Of a stretch of 64,000 nucleotides of DNA, positions 13,319 through 64,000 are shown piece by piece (positions within the stretch are counted from its first letter, which is position 1; the number at the start of each line of letters is the position of its first letter). The notes beneath the pieces were generated by a model that searched no databases, had not been told where the DNA came from, and saw nothing but the letters and a program-made list of their open reading frames with translations. The DNA is from a virus. Taxonomy: Duplodnaviria; Caudoviricetes. A program made the translations under genes and the position numbers. The stretch covers positions 2,235-66,234 of the IMG/VR virus record IMGVR_UViG_3300042356_000309, one strand, 5' to 3'.

Positions 13319-16300
13319 TTTGTTTTTGAAGTTTTCATTATAATATATCAGCGCAGTTTTAGATATTCTAGAGTTTGTCTGTTTCATAATAGTATTTAAT
13401 TCATCTAGTTCTTCGTCATCTAAACTTGCCCCATATCTCTCGTACATATAAAGAGCTTGCAGTTTAGGTTTATTTTCGAATACTATGTTTAACAGTCTTC
13501 TATCTAAACTCATATTATTTATGTAGTTATTATATTTATTATAATACGAATCTAATTCTGATTTAGTAACTGGTTTAAACCTTTCATCAATCATATCTAA
13601 AAGTTCTCCAACATTTAATTCTTTTCCAGAGTCATATATATCCTTTATATCATCATAAGTTTTTGTAGTATTATAATACTCCTCATCATTTTCTTCTATT
13701 AACATTTCAGCTATCCTGTCTTGTTCTTTTTTATCAAGAAGATTTTTATTAGTAGATCTAACTAATTTTCTGCTTGTATTTTTGATAAATTCATCCGTTG
13801 CGATAGAAAAAGCTTCTCCCATATCAGTCTTATCATCAAACATTCCATTAGCAACAGCATACAGTATAGATAATGTAGGATTTGTAGATTCAGATGTAAT
13901 TATTTTTTCAACCATCGCTTGAGTTCTTATAGGAGACATTCCAAATATAGGTGCTATAGTTTTAAATAAGCTATTTACATTATCATCATTTATACCTTCA
14001 TACTCTGGACTTATTACCCTATTTTCCCATCCCCTTTGTTGTTTAAATATTTTCTCTCCTCTAAATGTATCATAGTTTAATCCGTAAGCTATTCCAGCAG
14101 CAACCAATGGGTTTTTACCTAAAACGTTTTCTGGATAGAATGGAACTGATGATTTAACTGTATTCCAAAAAATATCATTATTTACATCGTAATCTACACC
14201 CCTAGAACTAAAAAAGAATTTTGTAATCATCTGTTCTGCAAATGTAGTAATTACTGAAAGCCCAGGAAGTTTTTTAATTCTTTTATATTTATACTCTCCG
14301 TTCTCATCTTTTTCTCCAGTAAATATTATATGATAGTTAGCTTTTTCGTATTCTGGTATAGAGTTTATAGCATCCATCATTTTTTTGTTACAATCATCTT
14401 CATCTTCTGCTTCAGCACAAGCACGTTGTAGTAATACAGATATAGAGTATGCAGCTATTCCAGCAGACATTATAGATCCTTGAATCATATTGCTTGCAAA
14501 TCCGTAAGGATTTTTTGTAGCGTATTCCCTAGTTCTTCTAAGGCCTTGCATACCTGCATTAAAGTATGGCATAACAGCATCTATATTTTTTGCATATTCT
14601 CCACCTTGATTAAAGTCAATAACCTCCCTAGCTTCTCTAACAGCATCATGCATTATATCTTCAAGGTCTTGTCCTTGAGGATCTAATCCATTATTTTCTT
14701 TTTTATATTTTTTAATTAGATCACTCTTTGTTTTTTCATATACAGAAAGTCTAAACGCCTCTTCTGATTTTTCACCTAAATATGATACAACTTTTGCATA
14801 GGTAACCAGAGTCTTTCTAGGTAATGAAAGAACTGGTAAGCCAAATACTTCTATCGTATATTCTTTTGATAGAAGCTGTCTAATTCCATCGGAAGACATG
14901 TAGTCCATTGCTCCACCATGCTCTAGGTATTCTCTTTTAATATTCTTATACTTTATTCCAAAAGAAGCTCTTAAGAAATTCTTTACAAAATCAAATGCAA
15001 GATGAGGAGCTCCATAAAATTTTCCAATAATTGGCATTTTACCATATACATCTGATAAAAATAAAATGTTAGAAAAGTCAGCAGGAACGTTACCAAGTAT
15101 AAAGAATGGGTTTCCAGATGTAGCAAAGAATCTTAAAAGAGATCCTCCAGATAATTTACCTATTTGTTTTAGTGTATCTGGAACATTATTTAAATCAAGT
15201 ATTTGATCTGCATATTTATTCTTTACGATCATCTTTCTTTTTACACCTTTCTTATAAAATATTACTTCTTTATATCCAAGAGGTATTTTATTCTTATCGT
15301 ATTTGTATATTAATGATCCTGTCTTAGTTTTTCCTATAACTGGATTATCTAAAAATATTTCAGATAACGCTTGTTTTTCTATATCAGTAGCATTTTCTAT
15401 ACTATCATTTATAGCATTAAGAAGTTTATTCTCAAAGTTTTTTCTTTCAGATGCATTTATTGCCATCATCATTAGCCACCTTGTGTCAGAGGCAAATGCA
15501 TTTTCGTTTTCATCACCAAGTCTTTTTATATCATCACTCTTTATACCTAGTGTTTTTGACATTGTGTCTATCTCAGTTGATGTAAACTGATCCTCACCTA
15601 TTATATATTTAAGAGTTTTAATTGGAGAGTACTCAATGTCTTTTAATGTATTGTATGTCTCTTCATTTATTCTGCCAGATTTAAAAGCATTTCTTAAATT
15701 TTCTTCATAAACCTTGAAGTATTCATTTGTTCTATTTTCAAAATCTGCATACTTCTTATCTCCAATAGCATTTTTTATTTCTTGCAAATCTGCCTGAGCT
15801 TCAGCTGTAGAGTATCCATCCATACCCTTATACGGCTTCATTCCTCTTTCAGCTCTATTTTTATTAATAGCTATAATACGTTTTGCGTATATCATGGCGT
15901 TAAGAAGATCCATATCTTTAACGCTAAGCAATAAATTTCTATTTAACTTTCTTCCATATATCTTTTTCTGAGCCTCTTTAAATCTTTCGTTTGCCCATCC
16001 AGAAGCACCAGCTTTATTTACTAATAAATTTAAAGCTCTCTTTGAGTATACACCAGCTATATTTCTTAAAGCTCTTTTTGCATCAGCTTGTCTATCTTCA
16101 AACTTTTGTATATACTCTTCAGCTAAATCTTTAGCCTTGGTCTTTTTTGTTCTTTCTTTTATATATTTTTTATTTTCATCTAATATATCTAAAGCCTTAA
16201 CGTTCTTTAGGCCCTTCTGTCTTCTGGCCTTAGTTATACTTGTAGCGTTTCTTTTAGTGTCTATTGATCCAGACATTCTTTCTCCCTTAAATGTAGCTAC

Positions 16301-19300
16301 AGTTCCATCCATTGAAGTTATAGTAGCCTTACCTCCGTACACTATAATCTCATCTCCCACCTTGTAAACGTCAGCCTCTTGTTCCTTGAATGGAATGTTC
16401 TCTTCAATAGGCGTTAGCTCCTTAACTGTCTGAGCTCTCAACTGGTCACCCTTCCACTTAGATACAAGCATATCGTACCCATTGTCAGCAGCCACCTTAC
16501 TGATCCATGCAGCCTGGTAGTTAGGACTGAATGCCTGTCCAGGACGTACTTCTAAGAACTGTCTTTTAGCTTCGTCATAGAAGTTTTCTTGGTCTTCCTG
16601 TAGGTAGTATACCTTGTCTTTAGGTACAACAACAGTATGAAGTACTGGACCAACTCCAGCCTCCTTCTGACCCTCCTGTGTATAGAACTGAGCAACACCT
16701 CCAACAGAGCTTAGTGCAGCTGCCTCGTCTCTACCAGTTATCATGTTATCTCCAGATCTAGGCTTGATGGTTTCTCTCTTCTGATTAGAGTAGTGATGGA
16801 ATATATAGTTTCCGTTACCGTCTTCAGTAAGTTTGTCAGCTACTTCCTTTTGAAGAGCCTTCTGTCTTCTTGGAGCAGGTCCTTGATCTTGTATTTTAGA
16901 TGTGTTTACTCTAAGTCCTCTAACAGAAACACCAGATGTTGGAAATATCTTATTCTCTCTTTCCTTAGATGCTACAATATCATTTGTCTCAAAGTCCTCA
17001 AATACTTCTGACCAATTAAACCTATCTTTTAGTATATGAAGAGTTACTTTATTATTAGCTTTTTCAGATTGAATTGCTTTTGGATATGATTCATGCTTAT
17101 CTGAATTAACATCTTTAACCTTACCTCTTAATTCTAACACAGCATAAACTTGTCCACCTTTATCCCTTTTAACTCCTTCTTTTAGCATAGGTTCAGTAAA
17201 CATCTCAGATAATGCTTGAGTCATGTTTGCTGCGGATATAGATAGCTTTCCAGTTTTTGTAATACCCTTAAAGTATTTATTTTGAATGCCTTGAGAAAAT
17301 AATTTTCCAAATTGTTCAACAGATTTAGGGTTTGATCTTATAACATTAGCAGCTTCTTTTATTAATTCTTCAACAAAAGTTTTTCTATCCTCAAATGATG
17401 TAATATCTGGATTCAATAATTCCTTTATTCTTGATGCTAAAATATCAACAGAATCTGATTTATTTAATTTAAATTGAGTTCCTAATCCAACAAGTTTTAT
17501 TCTATATTGTTTATTTCCTTTTTTATCAAGAACTGGTTTACCATCTTTCTTTATTAATGTCTTTTTTTCTCTTGTAACTTTTGCAGCATTATTAAGCATT
17601 GTTTTTAACTGAGATGGAGTTATGGAAAAATTCTTATCAAATGCCTTAGATAAAAAGAAATCAAGAACTGAGTTAGACATCGTAGTACTTGATAATAATT
17701 TATCATAAGGAGCAGTTGTAAGACCCATATAAATAACACCACCATTTTGTTCAAATACCTTGTTTAGATCTTTAGCCATTTTATTGGCCGTTTCATCTGT
17801 ACTTGCCCAAAAATAACCATCTTCATGAAATTTAATAGGATAGAATACACCTCCTTTACCTTCTACTAATATTTCTCCATCTTTATAAATCATTCCTGAG
17901 AAAGCTGCGTCAGGTTGATGAAGGAACATATATTCACCATTAAAATCTTTTATGGATTTATTTCTAGTTATGTATCCATCATCTTCAAGTTTCTTAAACT
18001 TATTTCCATTTTTATCAAATACAAATGTAAGTTTAGATACAAAGTCAGAAAAATTAGACTGGAATCTTTTATTTGCATTTGATATTTCAGTACTAGATTC
18101 AATTTTCTTTACATCTTTTTGTTTTATAGTCTTACCCTTAGCAGTCTTTCTAGCAATAGTAGTAAGTACATCGTAAACCTCATTCCTATTGAATGGATTT
18201 AATCCAAATGATTTAGCTATTCTGTCTATCCATCTCTTGATTACATCCTTAACAGATTCTGGAGCTTCCATATAATACTCAGACAACATACCAACTAACT
18301 CGGATACCTTTTCCTCGTTCTGTATATTCTCCTCGTATTGAGATGCAAAATCATCTAAGTATTTTTTTAACTTTGGATTACTATCTATCTTCTTAGATAC
18401 AGCCTCAATCATTTTTCTTGTAGTCAAAGCTGCATTTGCTTCAGTCTTAACTGCGTTAATAAGTACTGCATGGAATACCTCATGGGCTACAGTTCTTGCG
18501 TTAGCCTGTTCTAAGTTAATGTGTATCTCTCCAGTTGCAGGATCAAAATAACCTCCAGACTCAGTATCTCCAGCAATAGCAGCAAATGAATCCCGTGTAT
18601 CGTGAACAATGAACTTTGTGTTAGGTAGTATTCTAGAAACTGCCTTAGCTGCGTTAGCAACTATCTTAGCCATTCTAGGCTTAGATATCTGAGCAGCACG
18701 ATTTTCAATCTCTACGTCAGTACCAGATATAACTGTACCTGTTGATGATTGTGAAGGAGCAGTTTGCTCAAACACGTTTGGCAACCTTCCCTCTTTTAAC
18801 GCTTTTGCAATTTCCTTGAACTGAGCTCCACTAAACTGCATAGGATTTTTACCTGTACCTCCAGTCTTTACGTTCTGAAAAGACCCAAGATCAAATAGTG
18901 ATTCTTGATCTGCTAGTCTACCAAACTCAATGGCCTGCTCTCTAGATGACTCTGGAGCCACAACGTTTAGATCGATAGACATCTCGTTAGAGTTAGGGAA
19001 CTTATAGATACCTACCTTAACAGTTTCGTTGTCACCAATCTTATCTGCGTGCTGCTCAACGAAGTCTGCAATCATTTCTGGAGTAGCTTCCTCAACAGTT
19101 GTATTAATACTAACTACTGGTACAACTAATCCTACACCGTCATAAACTGTTCCATCAAGATTAAACGTTGCCCCATCCTCTGCTTCTGGAGTTACTGCCT
19201 TTACTCTTTCTAGTTCTTGAGAAGAGTTGGTAGCAATTGTAGGTTTGTCTATAACAACTTCTTCTGCAACAGGTTGTTGCACAACTGTTTCCTCCAAAGC

Positions 19301-22300
19301 AGCTAGTTCTGCATCATATTTAGCATTTACAGCTTCTTCAATGGTTTGGTCATTGTTAACTTGATAAGTTTCTTTAAGACCATCTTCTGTATAAGTATTA
19401 AGTTCTTCTTGTCTTCTTGTTTCTATATCAGCTTTCTGAGCCTCTACATCTACTACTTGCGTCTCCTGGAGCCCACCGCCTGCGATAGTGCTATCGCCAA
19501 GATTTGTTTCTGGCTGCGTGGCTTGCCCGACTGTCCCTTCTCCTTGCCCGACTTGAGGTTGTCCTTCATTAGTTCCCTCACGTTGTACGACACCGCCTTC
19601 TGCTGTGCCTTCTTGCTGCTGTTCTGTGCTTTTCTTAATGGCATTTTTAGATATTTTTTTTAGTTCATCATTAATCTGCTCTATCCTTTCTTTCTGGCCA
19701 GCAACTAGAGCCTCATCCTTACCAGCTATCTCTTCTTCTAGTTCTTGTTTTTCTAATAATAAGCTATATGACTCTATCTTATCAGAAGTAGATAATTTAT
19801 TTGGAATAGAATCCAATAACTCTCCAGTTTTTTTAACAAATTTTATCTTTGCATCAGCTTCATCTTTAGATATTTCTCCCTTTTGAAGCAGTATACCTAC
19901 ACTTGTTATATATGCATCCCTATTTCTTACATCAGATGTATAATCATAAAATTTCTTAAACTCTTTATTTGCAGATGCAGATGCCATCCTGTTTGTTACT
20001 ATGCTTGCACCATTAGACATCGTACCAAATATAGCACCACCTGCCATTCCTAAAACTACATTTTCAGCTAATGATGATATATACTCTTTTCTACCTTCAT
20101 CAGTACTAAGATCTGGAGCATCTTTAAAATAATCTAGATTATATGCAGCATTTATAGCTGCCTTCATTCCTCCTTCAAATATAAATTGAGTTCCTTCTGT
20201 ACCTCCTTCTGCAACTGCACCAACAGTAACATCAAACGCTCCAGCCGCAATAGCCTTTCCTATGTTCTTAGATATCTCCCTTTTAATAGTTTCTTCAGTA
20301 GCATCTTTTGGTAGGCCAGCTAATGATCTGCCTATTATAGATGTTATAACTCTTGAGTTAACTGGGGCCTTCATTTGTTCAAATCCATACTTCTCCAGCT
20401 TACCCATGACAAGTCCATAAGCAAAACCGTATGCATTTTTTTCTAATATTCCCATGTTGTCAAACTCTTCTGCTGTCATTTGCTCCCTCATGTCTGCATA
20501 TGCCCCAAGTATAAATCCAACTGATCCTCCAAGAGATGACCCCAAAGTTCCTCCAAGAGACCCTATAGCTTTTTCCCATATACTCCTATCTTCAGAAGAC
20601 ATCCATTCTGGAGTTGTTTCTTCCATAAATCCAAGTGATGACATAGTTTCTACACCAAGCTTTTTAGAATCTACTATAAATCTTGAAATGTCTCCATATA
20701 CCTTATTGTTTATTTCTTCTGGAGTCATTCCTTTTTCCAACATGTTATTATATAATGTTGGTTCTACAAAATTTTTAGCATCTAATCCTAACTTAACTAG
20801 ATCCGTCTCTACATACATAATAGCTTCAGCTATTCCCATAGATGCATCCATAAAATTAGATATAAATGAACCTACAATACCACCACTTTGTTCTCTTTCA
20901 AGAGAATTTAAACCTGCTGTTTTTTCTAGGCCTATAGATAGTTTATCTAAGTTTGCAGAAGATTGCTCGTAGTTGTATTTATCCTGCTCTACCTCTATTG
21001 TCTTTTTGTCTATTTCTTCTTGAGCTTTTTGAAAATCAAACGGATAATTTTTTATTACTTCAAGATTTTCATTTGCTAGATTTAAATATGTTTTATCTTT
21101 AGTTTTATCGTATTCTTTTTGATAATAATCAGCCTCTGCCTTTTTAGATTTTAAGAAGTCCTCCTCAAATCTTACTCTGCTTATGAGTCCACCTAAATCA
21201 TTGTTTGATTTTTGATATATTTTATATGCTGAATTAGATTGTTCTTCTACACTTTTAGCAATATTCTGCCACATGTCACCTCCTAGAGATACATTCTTAT
21301 CCATCATATTTTTATATACTGATGGGTTCCTGTATATCATATCGATCATTGCTCTCTCATACTCATCTTTATTTACAGCATTGATGTCTCCGTTATTAGA
21401 GTTAAACTTTCTCTCTAATATCCTAAAGTCTTTCTCTTTATTCCAAGTATCTATTAACCAGTCAGAAATTTCTTGAGGCGTGCTGTCTAGAGAAAATTTA
21501 TTTTGTCCAGGAGAGGTTATATTATCTCCATCTATAAAGAATCCATACTTATTCCAAAGAGATGAGTACTCTCCAGAATTTATTGATTTCTTTACATCAT
21601 CATAAAAATCAATATCTAGATTAGAAAAGTATTTTTCATCATCTTTATCTACTGTAAAGTATCTCTTTTTAGTTTCTCCGTATACCTCTTTCTTTTTTTC
21701 TATTTCTTTTTCAGCTTCACTCTGAAGGTAATTCCACTCTCCCCAATAATTTTGATTATAATAAAGATATGCCTTACCCATATCTATCTCTTCACCCTCT
21801 AAGCTATACATCTTTGATCCGTCTGGACTTTTATATGTATTCTCCTGTATCCATTCTGGGAATGATGGGAATTTTTTATAAGATTTTCCAGAAATAAATT
21901 CATGAAATTTATCAACAGCAGATTTGTTTGATTCATTTATTTCTTTCTGTATATCTATCTTTGTTTTTAAGTTCTCAGTAAATCCTTTTGTACGTCTCTC
22001 TATTTCTTCAAACTTACTTCTTGCTGGATCAATAACAGCTTCAGTGAACCACTCTATTAATTTTTTTCTTGGTTTTTTAATAGATTTACCATCTAAATAA
22101 ACCGTAGCCTCCTCCATTGTTTCTTTAAACTGACCTGTTTCTGGATCATATAATGACCCAGATGTCATATAGTCTCTAGTTGAGGCATACTCTAGTTCCT
22201 TTCCTACAGGAACCATAGCAGGTATAAGCCCAGACTGTCTTAGTAAGAAGGCTGTTCTTTCAGCGTCATTGGTCAATGAATTATACTCTTGTAGTTGCTG

Positions 22301-22894
22301 AATAGCTTTAGATGATGAGTTTGGATCGTACTCCCCCTTAGCAAATTTTTGAAAATCTACTTGACCTAACTTTGCAGCATTTTGCAAGTCCATAAGCATT
22401 TTTTCTTTGGGACTCATTTCATAGTTGTCCAAAACGCCCATTTGCTTCCTCCACTCTCTATCTGCAATTTGAGAGTTCCAGTCTGTTTCTTGAAGATTAC
22501 CCTTTAGTACTTCATCTTTTTCTATAGCATTTTGTACAGGGTATAGAATATTTTCTTTGTATTCTTGATCTGGACTTTTAGTAGTTGTTGTATCTACGTT
22601 TCTTTGCAAAGACGAGGATACCGAAGGCTCTGGCATCCCCATTTCTGGTGTAGCCAATGAACCACTTGTTGGATCTTCCATTGATGGTGATACCAACTCT
22701 TCTTTTTTTTTTAATGGTGTATACTTTATGTCAAAAGTTTCAAAGTCAGTACTTTCAATACCGTCTCTAGTAAGTACACCGTGTACCTTTTTTCTGTAAA
22801 TAGGGTCATTAAGCTGGTCTTCAAACTCACCTAATGTTTTTGTGTAGTAACCTCCTTCTGATAACTTATTGTATAAATCTTCTACTAACGCCAT
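13316..22894 (-). CDS. giant polyvalent internal virion/ejection protein (3192 aa) with SAMase-like, HExxH metallopeptidase, ART-like and LPD38-like domains
   Basis: Last gene of the ejection-protein cluster; GxFxP...IHIN...HEVFH...EE, HHYS...FYT...GYD and DFNQGG...PYFNAGMQG motifs. Confidence 0.85.
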   Translation of the reverse strand: MALVEDLYNKLSEGGYYTKTLGEFEDQLNDPIYRKKVHGVLTRDGIESTDFETFDIKYTPLKKKEELVSPSMEDPTSGSLATPEMGMPEPSVSSSLQRNVDTTTTKSPDQEYKENILYPVQNAIEKDEVLKGNLQETDWNSQIADREWRKQMGVLDNYEMSPKEKMLMDLQNAAKLGQVDFQKFAKGEYDPNSSSKAIQQLQEYNSLTNDAERTAFLLRQSGLIPAMVPVGKELEYASTRDYMTSGSLYDPETGQFKETMEEATVYLDGKSIKKPRKKLIEWFTEAVIDPARSKFEEIERRTKGFTENLKTKIDIQKEINESNKSAVDKFHEFISGKSYKKFPSFPEWIQENTYKSPDGSKMYSLEGEEIDMGKAYLYYNQNYWGEWNYLQSEAEKEIEKKKEVYGETKKRYFTVDKDDEKYFSNLDIDFYDDVKKSINSGEYSSLWNKYGFFIDGDNITSPGQNKFSLDSTPQEISDWLIDTWNKEKDFRILERKFNSNNGDINAVNKDEYERAMIDMIYRNPSVYKNMMDKNVSLGGDMWQNIAKSVEEQSNSAYKIYQKSNNDLGGLISRVRFEEDFLKSKKAEADYYQKEYDKTKDKTYLNLANENLEVIKNYPFDFQKAQEEIDKKTIEVEQDKYNYEQSSANLDKLSIGLEKTAGLNSLEREQSGGIVGSFISNFMDASMGIAEAIMYVETDLVKLGLDAKNFVEPTLYNNMLEKGMTPEEINNKVYGDISRFIVDSKKLGVETMSSLGFMEETTPEWMSSEDRSIWEKAIGSLGGTLGSSLGGSVGFILGAYADMREQMTAEEFDNMGILEKNAYGFAYGLVMGKLEKYGFEQMKAPVNSRVITSIIGRSLAGLPKDATEETIKREISKNIGKAIAAGAFDVTVGAVAEGGTEGTQFIFEGGMKAAINAAYNLDYFKDAPDLSTDEGRKEYISSLAENVVLGMAGGAIFGTMSNGASIVTNRMASASANKEFKKFYDYTSDVRNRDAYITSVGILLQKGEISKDEADAKIKFVKKTGELLDSIPNKLSTSDKIESYSLLLEKQELEEEIAGKDEALVAGQKERIEQINDELKKISKNAIKKSTEQQQEGTAEGGVVQREGTNEGQPQVGQGEGTVGQATQPETNLGDSTIAGGGLQETQVVDVEAQKADIETRRQEELNTYTEDGLKETYQVNNDQTIEEAVNAKYDAELAALEETVVQQPVAEEVVIDKPTIATNSSQELERVKAVTPEAEDGATFNLDGTVYDGVGLVVPVVSINTTVEEATPEMIADFVEQHADKIGDNETVKVGIYKFPNSNEMSIDLNVVAPESSREQAIEFGRLADQESLFDLGSFQNVKTGGTGKNPMQFSGAQFKEIAKALKEGRLPNVFEQTAPSQSSTGTVISGTDVEIENRAAQISKPRMAKIVANAAKAVSRILPNTKFIVHDTRDSFAAIAGDTESGGYFDPATGEIHINLEQANARTVAHEVFHAVLINAVKTEANAALTTRKMIEAVSKKIDSNPKLKKYLDDFASQYEENIQNEEKVSELVGMLSEYYMEAPESVKDVIKRWIDRIAKSFGLNPFNRNEVYDVLTTIARKTAKGKTIKQKDVKKIESSTEISNANKRFQSNFSDFVSKLTFVFDKNGNKFKKLEDDGYITRNKSIKDFNGEYMFLHQPDAAFSGMIYKDGEILVEGKGGVFYPIKFHEDGYFWASTDETANKMAKDLNKVFEQNGGVIYMGLTTAPYDKLLSSTTMSNSVLDFFLSKAFDKNFSITPSQLKTMLNNAAKVTREKKTLIKKDGKPVLDKKGNKQYRIKLVGLGTQFKLNKSDSVDILASRIKELLNPDITSFEDRKTFVEELIKEAANVIRSNPKSVEQFGKLFSQGIQNKYFKGITKTGKLSISAANMTQALSEMFTEPMLKEGVKRDKGGQVYAVLELRGKVKDVNSDKHESYPKAIQSEKANNKVTLHILKDRFNWSEVFEDFETNDIVASKERENKIFPTSGVSVRGLRVNTSKIQDQGPAPRRQKALQKEVADKLTEDGNGNYIFHHYSNQKRETIKPRSGDNMITGRDEAAALSSVGGVAQFYTQEGQKEAGVGPVLHTVVVPKDKVYYLQEDQENFYDEAKRQFLEVRPGQAFSPNYQAAWISKVAADNGYDMLVSKWKGDQLRAQTVKELTPIEENIPFKEQEADVYKVGDEIIVYGGKATITSMDGTVATFKGERMSGSIDTKRNATSITKARRQKGLKNVKALDILDENKKYIKERTKKTKAKDLAEEYIQKFEDRQADAKRALRNIAGVYSKRALNLLVNKAGASGWANERFKEAQKKIYGRKLNRNLLLSVKDMDLLNAMIYAKRIIAINKNRAERGMKPYKGMDGYSTAEAQADLQEIKNAIGDKKYADFENRTNEYFKVYEENLRNAFKSGRINEETYNTLKDIEYSPIKTLKYIIGEDQFTSTEIDTMSKTLGIKSDDIKRLGDENENAFASDTRWLMMMAINASERKNFENKLLNAINDSIENATDIEKQALSEIFLDNPVIGKTKTGSLIYKYDKNKIPLGYKEVIFYKKGVKRKMIVKNKYADQILDLNNVPDTLKQIGKLSGGSLLRFFATSGNPFFILGNVPADFSNILFLSDVYGKMPIIGKFYGAPHLAFDFVKNFLRASFGIKYKNIKREYLEHGGAMDYMSSDGIRQLLSKEYTIEVFGLPVLSLPRKTLVTYAKVVSYLGEKSEEAFRLSVYEKTKSDLIKKYKKENNGLDPQGQDLEDIMHDAVREAREVIDFNQGGEYAKNIDAVMPYFNAGMQGLRRTREYATKNPYGFASNMIQGSIMSAGIAAYSISVLLQRACAEAEDEDDCNKKMMDAINSIPEYEKANYHIIFTGEKDENGEYKYKRIKKLPGLSVITTFAEQMITKFFFSSRGVDYDVNNDIFWNTVKSSVPFYPENVLGKNPLVAAGIAYGLNYDTFRGEKIFKQQRGWENRVISPEYEGINDDNVNSLFKTIAPIFGMSPIRTQAMVEKIITSESTNPTLSILYAVANGMFDDKTDMGEAFSIATDEFIKNTSRKLVRSTNKNLLDKKEQDRIAEMLIEENDEEYYNTTKTYDDIKDIYDSGKELNVGELLDMIDERFKPVTKSELDSYYNKYNNYINNMSLDRRLLNIVFENKPKLQALYMYERYGASLDDEELDELNTIMKQTNSRISKTALIYYNENFKNK
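19453..19644 (-). CDS. nested out-of-frame small basic protein (MPL-K...KQxxAIALSxA type, DUF6496-like)
   Basis: Resembles a common stand-alone phage gene; A-rich start context AAAAAAATATCTAAAAATG; the host frame is a low-complexity linker here. Confidence 0.7.
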   Translation of the reverse strand: MPLRKAQNSSKKAQQKAVSYNVRELMKDNLKSGKEKGQSGKPRSQKQILAIALSQAVGSRRRK

Positions 22895-52802: not shown

Positions 52803-53052
52803 TTATCCTGTAGTTCTTATCGTTCATCCTGTAGTCGTGACCCTGCACAGAGTCATACGCAACCACGTCACCAGTTTTTATTACTGGGTTACCATCCTCG
52901 TCATACGGTAGATCCTCACTAGCGAGTATTACCTCAGCCTGCTGGTATCTCTGTTTTGCTGTCTCCATTCCAGAAAGTAGGAGCCCTGTACTGGACTCCT
53001 GTCTCTCTAACTCCATAGGTAGTACAACAATGAAACTATTCAACGCTTTCAT
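52771..53052 (-). CDS. groES: co-chaperonin GroES
   Basis: STGLLL mobile loop; GDVVxY and IIxxxDV motifs; adjacent to groEL. Confidence 0.85.
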   Translation of the reverse strand: MKALNSFIVVLPMELERQESSTGLLLSGMETAKQRYQQAEVILASEDLPYDEDGNPVIKTGDVVAYDSVQGHDYRMNDKNYRIIMYRDVALIL

Positions 53053-54631
53053 TCTCTCTTACGTTTGTTATTATCGCATTAGTACTTAGTATAGTTGTTG
53101 CCACAGAAACTGCGTTCTTGATGGCGTTCTTTGTTACCTTAGCTGGATCAATGATACCCATCTTGATCATGTCTCCATACTTGTCGTTCTTCACATCGTA
53201 ACCGTATCCATCCTTGTTGAACACGATGTTGTTGTAGCACTCCTCTGGATCTACTCCAGAGTTCGTACATATCTTGTACAACGGAGACTTCACAACGCTA
53301 GACATGATGTTGTAAGCTATCTCACGCTCTACTGTTGATCCGTTCTTAACCTTAGACATCGCATTGATTAGCGATATTCCACCACCTGGTAGAATGCCTT
53401 CGTCAATCGCTGCCTTCACTGCCAACACCGCATCGTCAACACGGTCCCTCAACTCCTTCTGCTCGATGTCAGAGTCTGCACCTACGTATATAATACCTAT
53501 ACCTCCAGAGATGTTGGCGATACGCTCGTTCAAGAAGTTGATATAGCTCTCGTCCTTCTCCTCCTCGATCAGCATCTTAAGGTCGGCAACGTGTGACTGA
53601 ACGTCACTCTTTTCAATGTAGTCCTCGTCTGGAATGATCACCGTTGAGTCCTGCCCGATAATAATCTTCTTGGCCTTACCCAACCCATCAAACGTACACA
53701 ACGCCAAGTTGTCTCCAGTTGCCTGGCTGTAGTAGTGGCCTCCGAGAGATACTGCGATGTCCTCCATCAGCTCGTCCTTACGGTATCCCATTGATGGTGG
53801 AATGATGTTGCAGAACCTGATCTTCTTCTCAAGAACGTTCATGTTAATTGTCGCTGCTACCTGTGGTGACAGCTGACCAATCACCAACAACGGGATACGC
53901 TCAGCTACTATGCGCTTAAGTATTGACTCAATGTGTGATAGGTTAACGATCTCGTGGTCCGTGATCAGTACGTATGCATCCTCGAACACACACTCCATCC
54001 TCCTGTTGTCTGTAACGAAGTGTCGTGATGTCCAACCACGCTGCACCCTAATACCGTTGATGATCTCTGAGTAGGTGTCGTTCGTCTTGGTGTTGTTCTC
54101 AACGGTCACAAACTTAACCTTGTCATACACGTCAGCGATTAGTTTACCAGTCACTGGGTCGTTGTTAGATGAGATCGTTGCAACGTCTAGTAATCGTCTA
54201 TCCTTAACTGGCTTAGCCATCTTACCAAGGTTCGTCACGATCTCGTCACAGATCGACTGTATAGACCTAAGAACCTCTGTCTTGTTGAACTTCTGGTACA
54301 TGCCAGTGATCCAGTCATACACATCGATCAGCTCTCTTGTCAACACGATGCTCGTTGTTGTACCGTCTCCAGCCATCTTCGCTGTATTCGATGCAGCCTC
54401 ACGCACGAGTTGTACCGCCAAGTTCTCAACTGGGTTATACAGGTTGATTGACTTTGCTACCGTTACACCGTCCTTGGTAACTGTAACCCCTCCGACATGT
54501 TGCTCAGACTCTATCAGAACGGTCTGACCACCTGGGCCTAGTGTTGATGCAACTGCGTCAGATATCTTATTTATACCGTTCTTCAGTTGATTTCGACCCT
54601 TTTCGTCTAAAAATATTTGTTTTATTACCAT
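53036..54631 (-). CDS. groEL: chaperonin GroEL
   Basis: TLGPxG, TKDGVTVAK, GDGTTT, GILPGGG and GIIDPAKV motifs. Confidence 0.95.
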   Translation of the reverse strand: MVIKQIFLDEKGRNQLKNGINKISDAVASTLGPGGQTVLIESEQHVGGVTVTKDGVTVAKSINLYNPVENLAVQLVREAASNTAKMAGDGTTTSIVLTRELIDVYDWITGMYQKFNKTEVLRSIQSICDEIVTNLGKMAKPVKDRRLLDVATISSNNDPVTGKLIADVYDKVKFVTVENNTKTNDTYSEIINGIRVQRGWTSRHFVTDNRRMECVFEDAYVLITDHEIVNLSHIESILKRIVAERIPLLVIGQLSPQVAATINMNVLEKKIRFCNIIPPSMGYRKDELMEDIAVSLGGHYYSQATGDNLALCTFDGLGKAKKIIIGQDSTVIIPDEDYIEKSDVQSHVADLKMLIEEEKDESYINFLNERIANISGGIGIIYVGADSDIEQKELRDRVDDAVLAVKAAIDEGILPGGGISLINAMSKVKNGSTVEREIAYNIMSSVVKSPLYKICTNSGVDPEECYNNIVFNKDGYGYDVKNDKYGDMIKMGIIDPAKVTKNAIKNAVSVATTILSTNAIITNVRENESVE

Positions 54632-58132: not shown

Positions 58133-58279
58133 TTATTCCTCACAGTTCATTCTGTGATACCTACAGTTTAATGATGCGTAGTACTGATCCCAGTCCTTCT
58201 GACGCTTCTTAGACCTCTCAGCGTAGCTTGTGCTGACTTGTGACGGCTTAGTGTTGAGTTTGTGCTGCCTTTTTTTCAT
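58133..58279 (-). CDS. small basic hypothetical protein (48 aa)
   Basis: Hand translation MKKRQHKLNTKPSQ... Confidence 0.4.
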   Translation of the reverse strand: MKKRQHKLNTKPSQVSTSYAERSKKRQKDWDQYYASLNCRYHRMNCEE

Positions 58280-58287
58280 CTATTGTA

Positions 58288-58521
58288 TTGATTATTAGTT
58301 AGTTACGTGTTTTTGTGTCGAAATGACGACAGGGGGCTCAGAAAAAAAATATTTTTTTTATTTATTTCTATAGTCTCTTTATATATATAATTATTTTTTT
58401 TTTTTTAATTTGTAAATATAGTAACATCTTAACACTAAAATAGCTATAACCATTATAAATAAAGAGATATAGAGCTTTTCAACTAAGCATTTAGTCAGCA
58501 CTAAATGGCAAATCTTGACAC
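58288..58521. repeat. degenerate inverted copy of 1271-1517
   Basis: AATCTTGACAC, TATAGTAACATCTtAaCACTAAAA and TTGATTATTAgTTAGTTA blocks. Confidence 0.75.
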
Positions 58522-58527
58522 TAATCG

Positions 58528-58641
58528 CTACTTCTTGACACGGATCTTCGGTAGTGACTTCTTTAGTGAAGGCTTCTTAACGATCAATCTCCTAAGACTA
58601 GGATTCTTCAACCCCTTTATTTTTGGCTTCAAACTTTTCAT
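58528..58641 (-). CDS. 37-aa protamine-like peptide
   Basis: MKSLKPKIKGLKNPSLRRLIVKKPSLKKSLPKIRVKK; TAACTTTG 4 nt upstream. Confidence 0.55.
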   Translation of the reverse strand: MKSLKPKIKGLKNPSLRRLIVKKPSLKKSLPKIRVKK

Positions 58642-58791
58642 ATAGCAAAGTTAAAAAATTAGTCGCATATTCTGGGGTGGGGGGTAATATATACAATTTC
58701 ACGTGAACATACGATAAAGGAAACGAGTTCAAAATGAGCATGGGGGTATACATTTCTATAGATTTCTCTGAACTTTTTAGCTTTTTGCCTA

Positions 58792-59069
58792 GCATGTAGG
58801 CATGCACGCACACATGCACGCACGTCACACGTGCACATCGCACGCACGCACATACGTCACGCATGGACGTACACGCACACGCATACACACATGAGCATGT
58901 GCACACAAGCACGCATACATGTACGCATGTACATGAGCGAGCGCACATATGTACGCACATACATACACACATGCATGTGAGCGTACACACATACACACGT
59001 GCACACATAAGCGCAGGCATACACACATACGCACATCACGTCATGCACACACGCACACATCACGTGCGT
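58792..59069. repeat. non-periodic alternating purine-pyrimidine tract (CA/TG/CG/TA mosaic)
   Basis: Direct reading, e.g. CATGCACGCACACATGCACGCACGT... Confidence 0.95.
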
Positions 59070-59258
59070 CCGCTCGGTTCGTTTATGCGCTGAGGTTTCT
59101 TTTTTGGGCGCATGTCTTCAGACAGGAAATCACAACAGCACCCATTTCCCCCCGTCAAAATGTATGGTAACACACATTTAGCTAAATTTTTTTTCATTTT
59201 TTTCTCGTTGATTATCAGTGAGTTACGAATTATTTTCACTTGTGGTGTTACCTGTCGT

Positions 59259-59289
59259 GTTACTTTTTGTTTCTTTTCACATTATACTA
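59259..59289 (+). promoter_or_regulatory. putative early promoter GTTACTTTTT-N11-CATTATACTA, copy 1
   Basis: Identical boxes and spacing at 59510-59540. Confidence 0.65.
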
Positions 59290-59509
59290 TCAGAACACCG
59301 AACGAGGTGACACAGATTTGACAAGCGACACACATGGGGATGAACAACAAGACCTTCAGTCTAGTCAGCGTATGCGACAGCACTAGTGAAAGTAATGAGG
59401 GCACGGAATAGTAGTCTACTGAGAACGAACATGGATGCGATGATACGAGCTACATAGATTGAAATTGCTTAGTAACATCAGTCAAACAAAAAAAATTTTA
59501 ATGCAGGTT

Positions 59510-59540
59510 GTTACTTTTTCAAGCAGGTTGCATTATACTA
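59510..59540 (+). promoter_or_regulatory. putative early promoter, copy 2
   Basis: Same as copy 1; followed by a boxA-like sequence. Confidence 0.65.
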
Positions 59541-59551
59541 GAAACAACACA

Positions 59552-59563
59552 GTTCTTTGACAT
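59552..59563 (+). promoter_or_regulatory. boxA-like antitermination element GTTCTTTGACAT
   Basis: Resembles the rrn/lambda boxA consensus; 11 nt after promoter copy 2. Confidence 0.55.
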
Positions 59564-59991
59564 AACGATACAACGATTAGCACATTTAATCATGGCACAT
59601 AAGACGAGTAATACCCCTAGCTGATAGGTTTCGCAGTCGTAGGTAACAAAGCATCCTACTAATCATAGCAACGGCAATGTGAATCAGATTGTATCAAAAG
59701 TAATAGATTGCTCGGATGATAGAGATATCATCTAACGTAGGAGCAAAAAAAAATAATTAATCACTATGGGGGCGGAAAAACAATTAATCCCTATAGGAGT
59801 AAAAAATAATTAATCACTAACGGCATAAGTGCCGTAACAACATCTAATGTATAACAAAGGTAATGATGTATGAACACTATACGTAATTGTATATAGCATG
59901 TGGCTGTCATTGAATGTTATACAAGCGAACAATTCCTTTCGGTGGTGGGATAACCGACTAGTAAATAGGGAGAGACAAACCAATCTCTCCC

Positions 59992-60040
59992 GTGTCATGT
60001 GGTGTGTGCCACATCTGATGAGTTCGAAAGAACGAAACAC
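59992..60040 (+). ncRNA. hammerhead ribozyme, type III
   Basis: GUGUC / AUGUGG-ugugug-CCACAU / CUGAUGA / GUUC-gaaa-GAAC / GAAACAC; full core, all three stems paired. Confidence 0.9.
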
Positions 60041-60068
60041 ATTATTAACCAATTAAAAAACAATCACC

Positions 60069-60191
60069 ATGAAAGCAATTAACAGAATCGTAGACGTAGT
60101 TTTTTTAGGAATCTTAACTACAGCATTAGCACTAGCAATCTTAATGATTGTAACTGGTAACGTCCATGCATCATTCACGAATGTAGGGTAA
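60069..60191 (+). CDS. small single-TM early protein (40 aa)
   Basis: MKAINRIVDVVFLGILTTALALAILMIV...; conserved leader. Confidence 0.6.
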   Translation: MKAINRIVDVVFLGILTTALALAILMIVTGNVHASFTNVG

Positions 60192-60219
60192 TTTATTAAT
60201 CAATTAAAACTTAGAAATC

Positions 60220-60387
60220 ATGAACGAATTAATCAACAGAATCAAGCACGACATCAAGCAAGCTGAGGCAAGAAGAGATGCATTTGAAAAAGGTACAAGG
60301 GAGTATGGTTTTAATCAAGGTATTGTATCCGCATTAAAAACAGTTTTATTCGACATGCGAGAATTAAGGTTAACTGATGAGTCTTGA
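60220..60387 (+). CDS. small early protein (55 aa); 3' end overlaps a hammerhead
   Basis: Hand translation ending RLTDES; TTAGAAATCATG leader. Confidence 0.6.
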   Translation: MNELINRIKHDIKQAEARRDAFEKGTREYGFNQGIVSALKTVLFDMRELRLTDES

Positions 60388-60419
60388 GTAGACGAAAGGG
60401 GATGTATCCCCTCTTAACC
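60368..60419 (+). ncRNA. hammerhead ribozyme, type I
   Basis: GGUUAA / CUGAUGA / GUCU-ugagu-AGAC / GAAA / GGGGA-ugua-UCCCC / UC / UUAACC. Confidence 0.9.
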
Positions 60420-60436
60420 AAATAAAATACACCACC

Positions 60437-61696
60437 ATGAGTAAAGTAATCAAAATTGAAGGAGCTTATGAGATTATAGGCTTCTACGTGAATGACGTAT
60501 TAGTTAGAACTACGAAGAGAAGAGTAACTAACTGGAAGTAATTGTTTAACCAAATAAAATTTAGAGTCATGGACAGAGACATCAAGATGTTCTTAACGGC
60601 ATCAGTAACACTAGCAATTGGGATAGTATCAATGGTATACTACGGACTAAACTATTAACCAAATAAAACTTAGAAATCATGAAAACATTTTTTGTAACAA
60701 GCGTATACGCTGATAGTGTACTAGACACATATAAAATTAAAGCTGTAGATGTAAGCGAAGCAATCAAGAAAGCTAAAAATAAACTAGCAAAGATTACTGG
60801 TAAAAGCTTTGCTGAGAGATGTGAGTACTTGACAAAGTAAATTATTAACCAAACAAAAACCAAACACCATGAAATCAACATTCAATTCATTAGTATCGAT
60901 GATACCATGTGCGGATAAACAACTGATGTTGTCCGCACTATATGACAAAGCGACAACCGTACAGAAGTTAGAGTTGATTGTATCACTAGAAGACTTCTTA
61001 GGAATCGACAAACAGAACATAGTTAAGAACTTTTTAAACCAATCGAGATGACAATTGACAAAGGAATAATCATAGCAACAGGACAGGAAGTTGTTATACG
61101 CAGAAAACAAATGGGACGATACTTGATCGAATTCCCGAACGGAATGACATATTGGTATTCACGAGATAAAATTAGAGAGATATGAAAAGCGAGAAAGAAT
61201 TAATCAGAACACTATTGTTTTATGCTGAGATGCTATCAGATAAGAATTCATCAGAGAAATTTCAGAATGAATACAGCAGGCTATCGTTAACGTTTGACTA
61301 CTACACGAGAGCAATTGAAGAGGCAAGAGAGTACATGACCAATCAAAAATAAACCACCATGAAACGATTAAAAGACATCAGAGAGGGCACGTTAGTACAA
61401 CTTGCCAACAGCATCCTTGAGTACTACATTCGAGGGAAAGCTAGCAACGGACGTGTAAAGCTTGTATGCTTCACGACAAAGCACGAGAGGTATTCACACC
61501 TTGATTGCTCATTAACTAAAGATACTAAAGTTATAATCTATAAGCCATGAAAAGAAGAATGTTATTGATATCGCTTGGCATGTTTGCCATGGGTATTGTA
61601 TGTTCGATGCAGGACATCGAAGAGGCAGGAGTAATGTATGTAATGGGTACATTATTCATGATAAAGAGTATGAACTTTAAAAGCTATAAGCCATGA
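60437..61696 (+). other. array of tiny early ORFs: 60437-60541, 60569-60658, 60679-60840, 60869-61051, 61048-61185, 61182-61352, 61359-61550, 61547-61696
   Basis: Each begins at a conserved leader or an ATGA overlap; two are hydrophobic. Confidence 0.6.
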
Positions 61697-61786
61697 CTAA
61701 CACACAGCGATTGATACTCATTGGCTTGGGTAGGACAATGAGGAATTATATTAATAGATTTAACTAACAAATAAAAATTAGAAATC

Positions 61787-61978
61787 ATGAAAGAATACAC
61801 AGCAACAATTAAATGGCTAGACAGCCAAGAGATGCAAGATGTCATCATAAAGGTAGGTGACGTAGATGAAAATGACGATAACATATTCTTTTATTTTGAT
61901 TCCGAAAATGAAATAGAAGAATTCAAAACAGAAGGAGTTAACGATTTTGTAATAGTAGATTTTTTACCAAACATTTAA
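61787..61978 (+). CDS. acidic early protein
   Basis: ORF track; DDxIFFYF motif. Confidence 0.7.
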   Translation: MKEYTATIKWLDSQEMQDVIIKVGDVDENDDNIFFYFDSENEIEEFKTEGVNDFVIVDFLPNI

Positions 61979-61990
61979 AAACTAGAAATC

Positions 61991-62305
61991 ATGAAAACAA
62001 TAAAAGAAAACAACAGACTGATTGCAGAGTTTATGGGTATGCAGGAGACTAAAATAGGATGGTATGACGCTGAAGAAAACCTGTCACTCGGATATACATA
62101 CTTTGATAATACATTTGACGAGTTGTTATTTAATAAGTCTTGGGATTGGTTGATGCCAGTAGTAGATGCTATATACAATATAGATATTGATGAGCAAGCA
62201 ACAAATGAAATTGGCGACATTACTCATGCTTTATTGGACGTAAATATAAACGCAGTGCATGAAGCAGTAGTAAACTTTATAGAATTTTATAACAAACAAA
62301 ACTAG
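61991..62305 (+). CDS. conserved phage protein (NxLIAEFMG...SWDWLMPVV)
   Basis: ORF track and recognisable motif. Confidence 0.75.
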   Translation: MKTIKENNRLIAEFMGMQETKIGWYDAEENLSLGYTYFDNTFDELLFNKSWDWLMPVVDAIYNIDIDEQATNEIGDITHALLDVNINAVHEAVVNFIEFYNKQN

Positions 62306-62310
62306 AAATC

Positions 62311-62580
62311 ATGGAAAAATTTGCAAGACGTTGTGATGCTACTGGACGTGGTATGAACGAAGGATACGTAGTAGGAGATGGAGAACGTTACTTCTCTGAG
62401 AAACAGCATTTAATAGATTGGCTAAGAAGTAGAGGTGGTATGGATGAATTGTCTGATGAGTTTATATTGAACGAATCATACGAGTTAGAGGAATACTACT
62501 ACACCGAATGGGACGAAGAAATAAACGAAAACAACTACGATTGTTACTACGATGAGGAAGGTAACGAGTATGAATTTTAA
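62311..62580 (+). CDS. acidic conserved phage protein (ARxCDxTGxGMNEG...YYTEW)
   Basis: ORF track and motif. Confidence 0.75.
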   Translation: MEKFARRCDATGRGMNEGYVVGDGERYFSEKQHLIDWLRSRGGMDELSDEFILNESYELEEYYYTEWDEEINENNYDCYYDEEGNEYEF

Positions 62581-62592
62581 AACCAAACCACC

Positions 62593-62982
62593 ATGGAAAC
62601 AAAGAAAATTAAGTTCGGTCTACTATACACAAGTAGCAAACAACTAGTGAAGTTCTGCACTGACAATAGCAAGCATTCAGATGAAAAATCTGTAGCAAAC
62701 ATAATGATTAAAAGAGTAATCACTGAAGAGGGATTCGAATACTCATGGAAAGGTATAAAGTCATGGTTACATGACTACGCAGACTACATGAATGCAGATA
62801 TGTTTGACGACAGAGATGACCACACGCCCGAGCAGTTGACATCATACATATCAGATATGATTGTATACTCAAATGCTCCTCACATCATCAGACTTGAGAC
62901 ATCAACTGAGGTTAATTCTGATTTCAAGAATAGTGTCATGTACGAAATAGAGAAAATGCTTGACAAAGCTTTAACCAAATAA
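62593..62982 (+). CDS. hypothetical early protein
   Basis: ORF track; conserved leader. Confidence 0.65.
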   Translation: METKKIKFGLLYTSSKQLVKFCTDNSKHSDEKSVANIMIKRVITEEGFEYSWKGIKSWLHDYADYMNADMFDDRDDHTPEQLTSYISDMIVYSNAPHIIRLETSTEVNSDFKNSVMYEIEKMLDKALTK

Positions 62983-62993
62983 AAATAATCGCC

Positions 62994-63155
62994 ATGAAGA
63001 GGGTAACATTAAACACCAAGTTGACCATGCAGGGATGGACAATAACAGGAGAATACCTACTGATAGGTAACTTCAGCAATCTCATTGACAATGCGACATG
63101 GTATGTCGTAATGGATGAGATGACAAACGAAACATTTATAATTGATAACTACTAA
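62994..63155 (+). CDS. hypothetical protein (53 aa), homolog of 401-559
   Basis: Hand translation; shared TITGEY motif. Confidence 0.7.
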   Translation: MKRVTLNTKLTMQGWTITGEYLLIGNFSNLIDNATWYVVMDEMTNETFIIDNY

Positions 63156-63166
63156 ACAAAATCGCC

Positions 63167-63538
63167 ATGAAAAATCTATTAAACTTCTGCACTGCTATCT
63201 TGGAAGATGGTGGTGCAACATTCAACCTAGCAACAGGTACATCTCCTGCAAGCGGATACATCGTGAGCGAGGCAGGTCATGAGGTAGTAATGCCTATGAT
63301 GAAGAACGAAGTCGCCAATCAGATATTCGTTACATCGGCAGTACGTCAGTACATCAGTGACAAGGGATTCGAGCTATCATTGGTAGAGAACTACCTTGGT
63401 GCATGGGTAGACAAGAACAAGCTGTACTTGGACATCAGCCGTGTATACGACAACGAGGAAGAAGCACGAGAGATGGCAATCAAGAACAATCAGATTGCAT
63501 ACTTTGATTTAAACACCTTAACAAGTAAGAACGTATGA
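63167..63538 (+). CDS. 123-aa putative SAM lyase-like protein, homolog of 571-942
   Basis: Same length and motifs as 571-942. Confidence 0.6.
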   Translation: MKNLLNFCTAILEDGGATFNLATGTSPASGYIVSEAGHEVVMPMMKNEVANQIFVTSAVRQYISDKGFELSLVENYLGAWVDKNKLYLDISRVYDNEEEAREMAIKNNQIAYFDLNTLTSKNV

Positions 63539-63780
63539 AGACAGGAAAGATAATACCGTCCGTTGGTTTCGGGAAAACTGACGGGCACATCAGAAAGCTG
63601 ACGATAGTTGAACAGCTACGGCAGATAGTTATGAGCAGGACAGATGGCACAATCGATCATCCTGCACATGGAAGGATACCTGTATCGTTAGAGCAGGCAG
63701 AACTATTCAAGGACTTTCCCGAGCAGTATCTGACATTGTTTCACCATAAAACCTTCAGCCATGATGACAATAATTCTTAA
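63535..63780 (+). CDS. hypothetical protein absent from the 401-1031 variant block
   Basis: ORF track; ATGA coupling. Confidence 0.55.
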   Translation: MKTGKIIPSVGFGKTDGHIRKLTIVEQLRQIVMSRTDGTIDHPAHGRIPVSLEQAELFKDFPEQYLTLFHHKTFSHDDNNS

Positions 63781-63856
63781 GATAATTTTCGTGTGTTTCG
63801 TATCTTTGTTTCTGATAGAGAAGTTTATCAAGTTCATTGAGAAGCACGGATACTAA
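63764..63856 (+). CDS. 30-aa single-TM peptide, homolog of 939-1031
   Basis: Hand translation. Confidence 0.7.
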   Translation: MTIILKIIFVCFVSLFLIEKFIKFIEKHGY

Positions 63857-63873
63857 CAATAAAAACTACGGCC

Positions 63874-64000
63874 TATGTACCAAGCAGTAATAATACCTTA
63901 CGGAGTACCCGAAGAGTGGGTACTAAATGTTTTGTTCGGGAACACAGACGAGGAGCGATTAATGGAGATAGCATCTCAGCTCCTCGAACTTGGTGTTAGG
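63874..64000 (+). repeat. 127-bp exact repeat of 1042-1168 (circularisation/assembly overlap)
   Basis: Base-by-base identity. Confidence 0.95.

Follow-up and report, generated by a model that had tools for sequence, protein, structure and literature searches.

The window analysed here is a 64,000-nucleotide stretch of phage DNA, comprising bases 2235-66234 of a 66,234-base IMG/VR virus record that encodes a phage portal protein, a virion structural protein, a primase/helicase and a GroEL-like chaperonin. The stretch occurs in 20 listed sequencing runs, each of them DNA from a lake or freshwater metagenome and none on record as RNA. From about position 60,000 onward, the + strand carries a run of very small genes that reaches the end of the window. 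The first of these (60069-60191) encodes a hydrophobic protein of 40 aa, has a paralogue of 52% identity at 1320-1439 of locus L001, and lies between two hammerhead ribozymes of the same strand, one of type III (59989-60043) and one of type I (60368-60419). The type I ribozyme overlaps the end of a 55-aa gene (60220-60387, + strand, taken from the open reading frame list), for which we found neither a PHROG family nor a homologue in the fetched loci, and is directly followed by a gene of 34 aa (60437-60541, + strand, MSKVIKIEG...). Six small early proteins, the 34-aa one among them, were searched against PHROGs without a family match.

The type I hammerhead was recognized by sequence reading, by a structural descriptor, by a covariance model built from its relatives and by its predicted fold. 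Its stem I is an open helix of 6 pairs joining GGUUAA (60368-60373) to UUAACC (60414-60419), and between these two strands lie, in order, the core CUGAUGA (60374-60380), stem-loop II with 4 pairs (GUCU/AGAC, loop UGAGU, 60381-60393), GAAA (60394-60397), stem-loop III (GGGGA/UCCCC, loop UGUA, 60398-60411), whose 5 pairs are joined by the A15.1-U16.1 pair, and finally UC, in which U16.1 is position 60412 and C17 is C60413, the predicted cleavage nucleotide. The position of the predicted self-cleavage site, between 60413 and 60414 on the + strand, is taken from this fold. The core and core-adjacent pairs were judged by the rules set out in the methods of Perreault et al. (2011; PMC3088659), as given in the part of that paper drawn on here. 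Every core position agrees with these rules (C3 U4 G5 A6 U7 G8 A9; G12 A13 A14; A15.1-U16.1, formed by A60397 and U60412; and H17, which is C60413), and the pairs that adjoin the core are standard (G60381-C60393 at 10.1-11.1 and A60373-U60414 at 1.1-2.1).

The hammerhead is the minimum-energy structure of the sequence both alone and within 121 nt, and the stability of the fold relative to shuffled sequences is not significant (z of -1.7 for the 52 nt and -0.7 for the 121 nt). A loose descriptor demanding at least 4, 3 and 3 pairs in the three stems finds one site in the window, 60368-60419, and one site in 300 Markov-shuffled windows searched on both strands, and the bare core pattern taken by itself is not above chance in the window (2 found vs. 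1.44 expected). Rfam at its gathering thresholds reports no family in the window and no match in the loci of 10 relatives. With E values up to 10 admitted, the only Rfam model to score the type I site is RF03152 (26.2 bits, E of 0.07, 60347-60418). Membership in this family, RAGATH-1, was rejected, as the score falls well short of the gathering score of 56.3 bits and stem II of the present site is an ordinary hairpin. Since the site has all the structural features by which a type I hammerhead is defined, this shortfall is a limit of the models and not of the motif. Stem I is weak, with four A-U pairs among its six. The segment at 60368-60419 is thus a canonical type I hammerhead with a complete core and three helices. 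A preliminary description of this DNA had already proposed a type I hammerhead with an intact core here, on which the sequence reading, the descriptor and the relatives' model all agree, and its coordinates proved correct throughout when the sequence was read again.

Hammerheads at the equivalent leaders of related phages, which that description had named as a check on its reading, are found in numbers, with at least 109 unique type I copies. We scanned IMG/VR with a pattern in which the core, CGAAA and UC-UUAACC were fixed and the 5' strand of stem I was left open, and obtained at least 119 stretches holding at least 139 matches. Among the matches listed, GGTTAA stands directly 5' of the core in 124 of 139 (102 of 110 unique), and all three stems are formed by 120 of 139. 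The 15 listed matches without GGTTAA comprise 7 copies of one coding sequence, 2 GGTTGA variants and 6 others that are chance-looking hits or variants. An alignment of 79 of the 109 unique type I copies among the matches listed, from which the window itself was excluded along with 29 copies of 59 nt or more with long insertions and one 47-nt copy, has changes on both sides in 10 of its 15 pairs and a covariation score of 0.558, compared to 0.03-0.11 when the pairing partners are slid. The proportion of paired cells is 99.2%, compared to 24-42% with slid partners, a figure that partly reflects the choice of rows, all of which had already passed a descriptor requiring paired stems. The GGTTAA count (124 of 139 among the matches listed) does not depend on this selection. 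A covariance model built from these 79 relatives without the window (hereafter R1) recovers 60368-60419 exactly, with 65.8 bits and an E value of 1.3e-15, and finds no second type I hammerhead in the window.

The constraints on the relatives extend beyond the helices. Among the matches listed, stem I is preceded by an A in 109 of 109 unique copies and followed by one in 107 of 109; a loop II of 5 nt occurs in 95 of 109, and 66 copies have the loop form U-N-A-R-U. The copy in the window fits all of this (A60367, A60420 and loop UGAGU). Because these constraints fall outside the Watson-Crick pairs, the invariant flanking A and the restricted loop II suggest a tertiary contact between stem I and loop II, which hammerheads need for fast cleavage at cellular Mg2+ concentrations.

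Judged by their proteins, many contigs that carry these hammerheads belong to relatives of the window's phage, with chaperonins 54-63% identical to that of the window in seven loci (L104, L105, L048, L006, L012, L094 and L067) and primases 50-58% identical in two (L114 and L097). The GroEL-like chaperonin of the window (53036-54631, - strand, phrog_5725) is a usable marker for this phage group. A blastn search of the GenBank phage collection with 59700-60900 gave no match, and the search for relatives by a 667-aa protein gave one contig, L004, which ends before the early region.

A second IMG/VR scan, in which stem I was left free, yielded 142 matches; the descriptor accepts 108 of them, corresponding to 98-99 unique copies (loci L128-L234). 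The 3' strand of stem I varies widely here (TTAACC in 8, TTTGAC in 6, TTATGC, TTGTTC and TTAGTC in 5 each, TTAATC in 4, and many others) and is often common to the copies on one contig. A stem I of exactly 6 pairs occurs in 66 of 98 copies, and 64 of these 66 have an A on each flank, so that the flanking A is seen in this unbiased sample too. The median distance from cut to ATG is 26 nt. As a side observation, the phage type I copies of L128-L234 mostly follow one plan, with a 6-pair stem I closed by G-C whose sequence is specific to the clade. On this comparison, the diversity of stem I strands within a shared, A-flanked 6-pair plan marks the ribozyme of the window as one clade's own variant of a design that is very common in phages.

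The 3' strand of stem I is at the same time the start of a leader. The A-rich 23-nt leader of the 34-aa gene, UUAACCAAAUAAAAUACACCACC (60414-60436, + strand), supplies its first 6 nt to the helix, and further UUAACC leaders stand elsewhere in the run of small genes: one directly 3' of the type III ribozyme, belonging to the first early gene (60045-60068), four that are free of ribozymes and lie 23-24 nt before an ATG (starts at 60546, 60655, 60845 and 62971, the last extending to 62993), and a TTAATC variant, TTAATCAATTAAAA, that starts at 60196, 24 nt before the ATG of ORF 60220-60387, all on the + strand. In the whole window TTAACCAAATAAAA occurs at 9 sites with up to 2 mismatches, compared to 1.6 expected and with 9 reached in none of 100 shuffles, and 7 of the 9 fall within the + strand segment 60045-62984. 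Seven TTAACC sites and one TTAATC site of the + strand lie 23-26 nt before an ATG; for the six TTAACC sites of the early-gene run (60045-62971) and the TTAATC site the distance is 23-24 nt. It is clear that the leader does serve as stem I, as had been proposed, with the 3' strand of the ribozyme being the same UUAACC that precedes other early genes at this distance. One leader of the window lies behind a type I ribozyme and one behind a type III. Among the matches listed in the loci of relatives there are 251 unique units of leader plus ATG, 100 directly behind a type I hammerhead vs. 151 without one, and the leader would seem to have a role of its own because most of its copies stand without a ribozyme.

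The ribozyme is fitted closely between the coding regions on its two sides. ORF 60220-60387 ends in AGG UUA ACU GAU GAG UCU UGA (RLTDES-stop), so that the ribozyme contains its final six codons and its stop, the UGA (60385-60387) being in loop II, and the overlap with a stop codon noted in the preliminary description is therefore correct. The 3' product begins with UUAACCAAAUAAAA and has its ATG at 60437, 23 nt after the cut. Among the matches listed, 88 of 109 unique copies have, 18-24 nt downstream of the cut, an ATG that begins a frame of 25 or more codons. For 95 copies among the matches listed, an ORF of at least 30 codons ends nearby, and its stop is in or on the ribozyme in 59 of these (at position -2 relative to the ribozyme in 11, +3 in 26, +7 in 18 and +17, the type of the window, in 4), at most 10 nt before it in 30 and far upstream in 6. 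The segment GGUUAACUGA carries stop codons in two of three frames, which means that a gene running into the ribozyme is ended by the ribozyme, and the overlap is for this reason equally well explained by tight gene packing.

The gene behind the ribozyme allows the association of ribozyme, leader and gene to be followed. A paralogue of the 34-aa gene with 91% identity lies in L001, directly after the other type III ribozyme, and homologues are found in L104, L094, L012, L006, L114 and L023. A ribozyme stands directly upstream of a member of this family in the window, L001, L012/L006 and L114, being of type I in L012/L006 and L114; in L104 a type I ribozyme comes after the homologue, and in L094 and L023 there is none nearby. 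The idea that ribozyme and leader form a unit that travels with gene cassettes fares poorly here, since the same gene family is found behind a type I ribozyme, a type III ribozyme or none, and the leader is commoner without a ribozyme than with one (the 151 vs. 100 units among the matches listed). This variability ties the ribozyme to a place before a gene, rather than to a travelling unit of ribozyme and gene.

The type III hammerhead at 59989-60043 was identified with RF00008, with a model of relatives and by covariation. It consists of a stem I hairpin (59997-60014), the core (60015-60021), stem-loop II (60022-60033), GAAA (60034-60037) and a stem III of 3 pairs plus A-U (59992-59995 with 60037-60040), and its predicted cut follows C59996. 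RF00008 gives it 33.5 bits (E of 4e-5), below the gathering score of 48.5, and a model built from 12 type III copies of relatives (R2) gives it 53.6 bits (E of 3.5e-14). Stem III is short and is absent from the minimum-energy fold. A second type III copy lies in the record's diverged duplicate of this region (L001/G000 994-1048), and the two copies differ in a compensatory manner in stem II (GUCC/GGAC vs. GUUC/GAAC) and stem III (AUG/CAU vs. GUG/CAC). Strain variation was read from four lake DNA runs: a lake-metagenome contig covering 59989-60700 (712 nt) has 8 substitutions relative to the window, five of which change the type III stem-loop II from GUUC-GAAA-GAAC to GCUG-AAAA-CAGC with all four pairs kept. 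From this pattern of substitution and the model scores we take the type III partner to be, in all likelihood, a real hammerhead. The predicted cuts at C59996 and C60413 delimit a piece of 417 nt (59997-60413) holding ORFs 60069-60191 and 60220-60387, in agreement with the two-gene segment of about 417 nt described previously. Type III and type I ribozymes in one orientation thus flank two genes, as in the clustered hammerheads of other phages, and the copy at G000 994-1048 makes a third in the record.

Several features upstream of the type III ribozyme are relevant to the transcript in which the two ribozymes would lie. A stable hairpin, GGGAGAG...CUCUCCC, found as an inverted repeat at 59968-59991 on the + strand just before the type III cut, would form the 3' end of the RNA that is cut off, and the L001 copy has a different hairpin at the equivalent place (about 959-996). 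No terminator-like site was found on the + strand in 59997-63904, which fits one long transcript. Over 58200-64000, promoter-like sites (23 vs. 22.5 shuffled) and terminator-like sites (3 vs. 2.7) are not above shuffles.

Apart from the ribozymes, the record holds two diverged non-coding copies of a region of about 1.4 kb, one at 58626-60050 of the window and one at L001/G000 1-1050. Their first ~125 nt are nearly identical, each ends in a type III hammerhead followed by a UUAACC leader, and each precedes a run of small early genes that are paralogous and differ in order. A conserved 30-nt block, GTTACTTTTT-N11-CATTATACT, occurs twice per copy (59259-59288 and 59510-59539 in the window; about 650-680 and 767-796 in L001) and looks like a candidate early promoter with a poor match to sigma-70. 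Both copies also contain a low-complexity tract rich in CA and CG that resembles ACGCACAC (about 58790-59060 in the window and about 180-470 in L001), which in L001 draws spurious matches to microRNA families. The stretch from the promoter-like block to the type III cut (59566-59996, about 430 nt) has no convincing ORF, contains AAAAATAATTAATCACTA twice, near 59748 and near 59801, and ends in the hairpin described above; it may be a leader RNA that is released by the ribozyme. The equivalent stretch of L001 is unrelated, has about 175 nt and also ends in a hairpin. Elsewhere in the window, an ORF of 3192 aa (13316-22894, - strand) was considered as an N4-like virion RNA polymerase, a candidate that was dropped as Pfam, PHROGs and a PDB sequence search gave nothing for it.

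On the whole, we consider it likely that the type I ribozyme is active, cleaves itself constitutively and so serves the processing of an early polycistronic transcript into separate mRNAs. Hammerhead cleavage leaves a 2',3'-cyclic phosphate on the upstream product and a 5'-OH on the downstream product. In the proposed scheme, the type I ribozyme would cut the bond from C60413 to U60414 immediately upon transcription. Upstream of the cut, the RNA would retain its stop codon and end in the folded body of the ribozyme, its 3' end carrying the stem III hairpin and a 2',3'-cyclic phosphate, and the downstream mRNA would begin with a 5'-OH on U60414 and an unstructured, A-rich leader of 23 nt before its ATG. 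The products would be expected to separate because stem I has only 6 weak pairs and stem III of the type III ribozyme only 4. With the type III hammerhead at 59989-60043 removing a long 5' leader RNA, the two ribozymes together would split the early RNA into separate messages, whose stability and translation could become independent of neighboring sequence; the arrangement would in effect be a self-contained counterpart to the nuclease processing sites found between phage cistrons. We infer both the cleavage in vivo and the benefit to stability or translation from the arrangement of the locus, and the benefit could lie in stability, in insulation from the upstream context or in translation. 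In the part of Perreault et al. (2011; PMC3088659) drawn on here, cleavage is shown for three clustered prophage arrangements and processing into single-gene mRNAs is proposed, and a 2019 review, in the sections consulted, repeats the idea of stability and translation and calls the purpose of phage hammerheads unresolved.

A more ambitious version of this scheme, to which we would assign only a small chance, treats the succession of stop codon, hammerhead, UUAACC leader and ATG as a translational reset for messages without a Shine-Dalgarno site, of the Bacteroidota type, in which a free and unstructured 5'-OH end 18-24 nt before the ATG would let ribosomes start. Were this so, ribozyme activity would be required for downstream expression, in parallel with a 2026 report on some eukaryotic RNA viruses, and the clade-wide stem I would let a fragment that ends in the ribozyme pair again with any fragment that starts with UUAACC, the two perhaps being re-ligated.

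Other roles for the site must be weighed against constitutive processing. The stop codon inside the ribozyme raises the possibility that ribosomes gate the cleavage: translation up to the UGA at 60385-60387 in loop II would unfold stem I and the core, since a terminating ribosome would, judging from the size of its footprint, cover stem I, the core and stem II, and the level of upstream translation would in this manner control both cutting and downstream expression. That stops in or on the ribozyme are common among the matches listed (the 59 of 95 copies above, 4 of them of the window's type) is in keeping with such control. However, the stops in two of three frames of GGUUAACUGA would end any entering gene regardless of function, phage genes are tightly packed anyway, and among the matches listed the upstream gene ends shortly before the ribozyme in 30 of 95 copies and far upstream of it in 6. 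Coupling of cleavage to translation, for which the geometry of the site is the argument, seems to us unlikely, and we hold gating of downstream expression at the same low probability. At the other extreme, the motif might be decayed or a product of chance, either failing to cleave or acting simply as a 3' hairpin or as coding sequence, a reading to which the scores below the Rfam thresholds, the short A-U-rich stem I and the partly coding sequence lend some color. This is very unlikely in view of the agreement of every core position and core-adjacent pair with the rules of Perreault et al. (2011; in the part drawn on here), the R1 E value of 1.3e-15, the single loose descriptor match in 300 shuffled windows, and the lake-strain contig, in which the type I site is identical despite the 8 other differences in 712 nt.

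The two-ribozyme arrangement is real, and the ends it is predicted to produce are of the chemistry used by RtcB, from which it had been suggested that an RtcB-type ligase joins the 417-nt RNA (59997-60413) into a circular mRNA. In viroid-like RNAs and retrozymes, both ends of the circularized segment are copies of the same ribozyme, which is rebuilt on circularization. The present segment resembles these in being bounded by two hammerheads and in its predicted 5'-OH and cyclic-phosphate ends, but differs in that its ribozymes are of different types, so its ends do not pair and cannot rebuild one hammerhead. The 5' end would moreover lie within the type III ribozyme's stem I hairpin, the 3' end would be the body of the type I, and the number and types of flanking ribozymes vary in relatives. 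A search for RtcB drew a blank in the 66-kb phage record (0 of 1) and, as a control, found the protein in 10 of 14 reference genomes, although a host ligase could act in its place. Circular or spliced products of clustered phage hammerheads were sought by Perreault et al. (2011; PMC3088659), and none are reported as detected in the part of that work drawn on here. With unmatched ends, no RtcB in the record and no circles in that study, we regard circularization as highly improbable.

The closest known systems are the clusters described by Perreault et al. (2011; PMC3088659), in which, according to the part of the paper used here, hammerheads of mixed types and one orientation with a canonical core flank one or more phage genes, with a proposed role in dividing long transcripts into single-gene mRNAs. 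Both the flanking of phage genes by hammerheads and the idea of mRNA segmentation are thus already published, and the present site adds no new principle. Relative to those clusters as there described, what distinguishes it is the tight cassette of stop codon, ribozyme, 18-24-nt leader and ATG, along with a stem I (GGUUAA/UUAACC) that is fixed in the clade and whose 3' strand is a leader also used without a ribozyme. In the literature searched, titles and abstracts mention neither a hammerhead group with UUAACC/GGUUAA nor a cassette of stop, ribozyme, leader and start, and the supplement of Perreault et al. (2011) may contain members. The HHphage hammerheads of haloviruses HF1 and HF2 are similar in lying 13 nt before an early-gene start at the head of a polycistronic transcript, where the mapped 5' end is no more than 3 nt away from the cleavage site (Perreault et al., 2011; PMC3088659). 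Unlike the present site, which has a canonical core, lies between two genes and overlaps a stop codon, they are, in the description available from that source, core or structural variants that need high salt and belong to archaeal viruses. For certain RNA viruses, self-cleavage of a ribozyme in the 5' UTR is reported to be needed for translation initiation (Lopez-Galiano et al., 2026; PMC13725137); from the portion of that work used here, these are likewise type I hammerheads just before a coding region, but in viruses of eukaryotic hosts with cap-independent translation.

RAGATH-1 (RF03152) shares the type I topology and an A/U-rich stem I, and its consensus differs in having a stem II of one pair and an extra upstream hairpin, compared to the 4-pair stem II found here. 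In the early RNA of phage T7, RNase III cuts between cistrons, leaving a 3' hairpin on the upstream message and defining the 5' end of the next. The sites are alike in being intercistronic cuts in early polycistronic phage RNA, and differ in that T7 relies on a host nuclease that leaves 5'-phosphate and 3'-OH ends, whereas the predicted self-cut would leave a 5'-OH and a cyclic phosphate.

The value of this group of ribozymes lies in its regularity, with more than 100 covarying copies between a stop and a start codon at a fixed distance and with a stem I that shares the leader, along with the 151 ribozyme-free leader copies among the matches listed, which are natural controls in the same genomes. 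This regularity makes ideas of processing, stability and translation directly testable with simple reporters. The role of genomic hammerheads in bacteria and phages is an open question according to the 2019 review, in the sections consulted. The present group also shows that the current hammerhead thresholds of Rfam miss an abundant phage subgroup.

With regard to the host, the type I pattern with GGTTAA was found in four genome contigs, two of them chromosome-sized and from Chitinophagaceae (a Niabella MAG and Paraflavitalea) and two of them short MAG contigs of doubtful assignment. The leaders, inspected by eye, have no Shine-Dalgarno site, and this together with the Chitinophagaceae contigs makes a host from the Bacteroidota likely. 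Full GGUUAA/UUAACC type I hammerheads lie in the Chitinophagaceae records at L126 7810-7866 and L127 3832-3898; they may be in prophages, and would then offer a lead to host range. Two of the lake runs (X5 and X14) also contain contigs of other genomes, at the much higher depths of about 141 and 155, that match 60366-60401 only, the 5' half of the type I ribozyme, so that similar ribozymes would appear to be present in more abundant phages of the same lakes.
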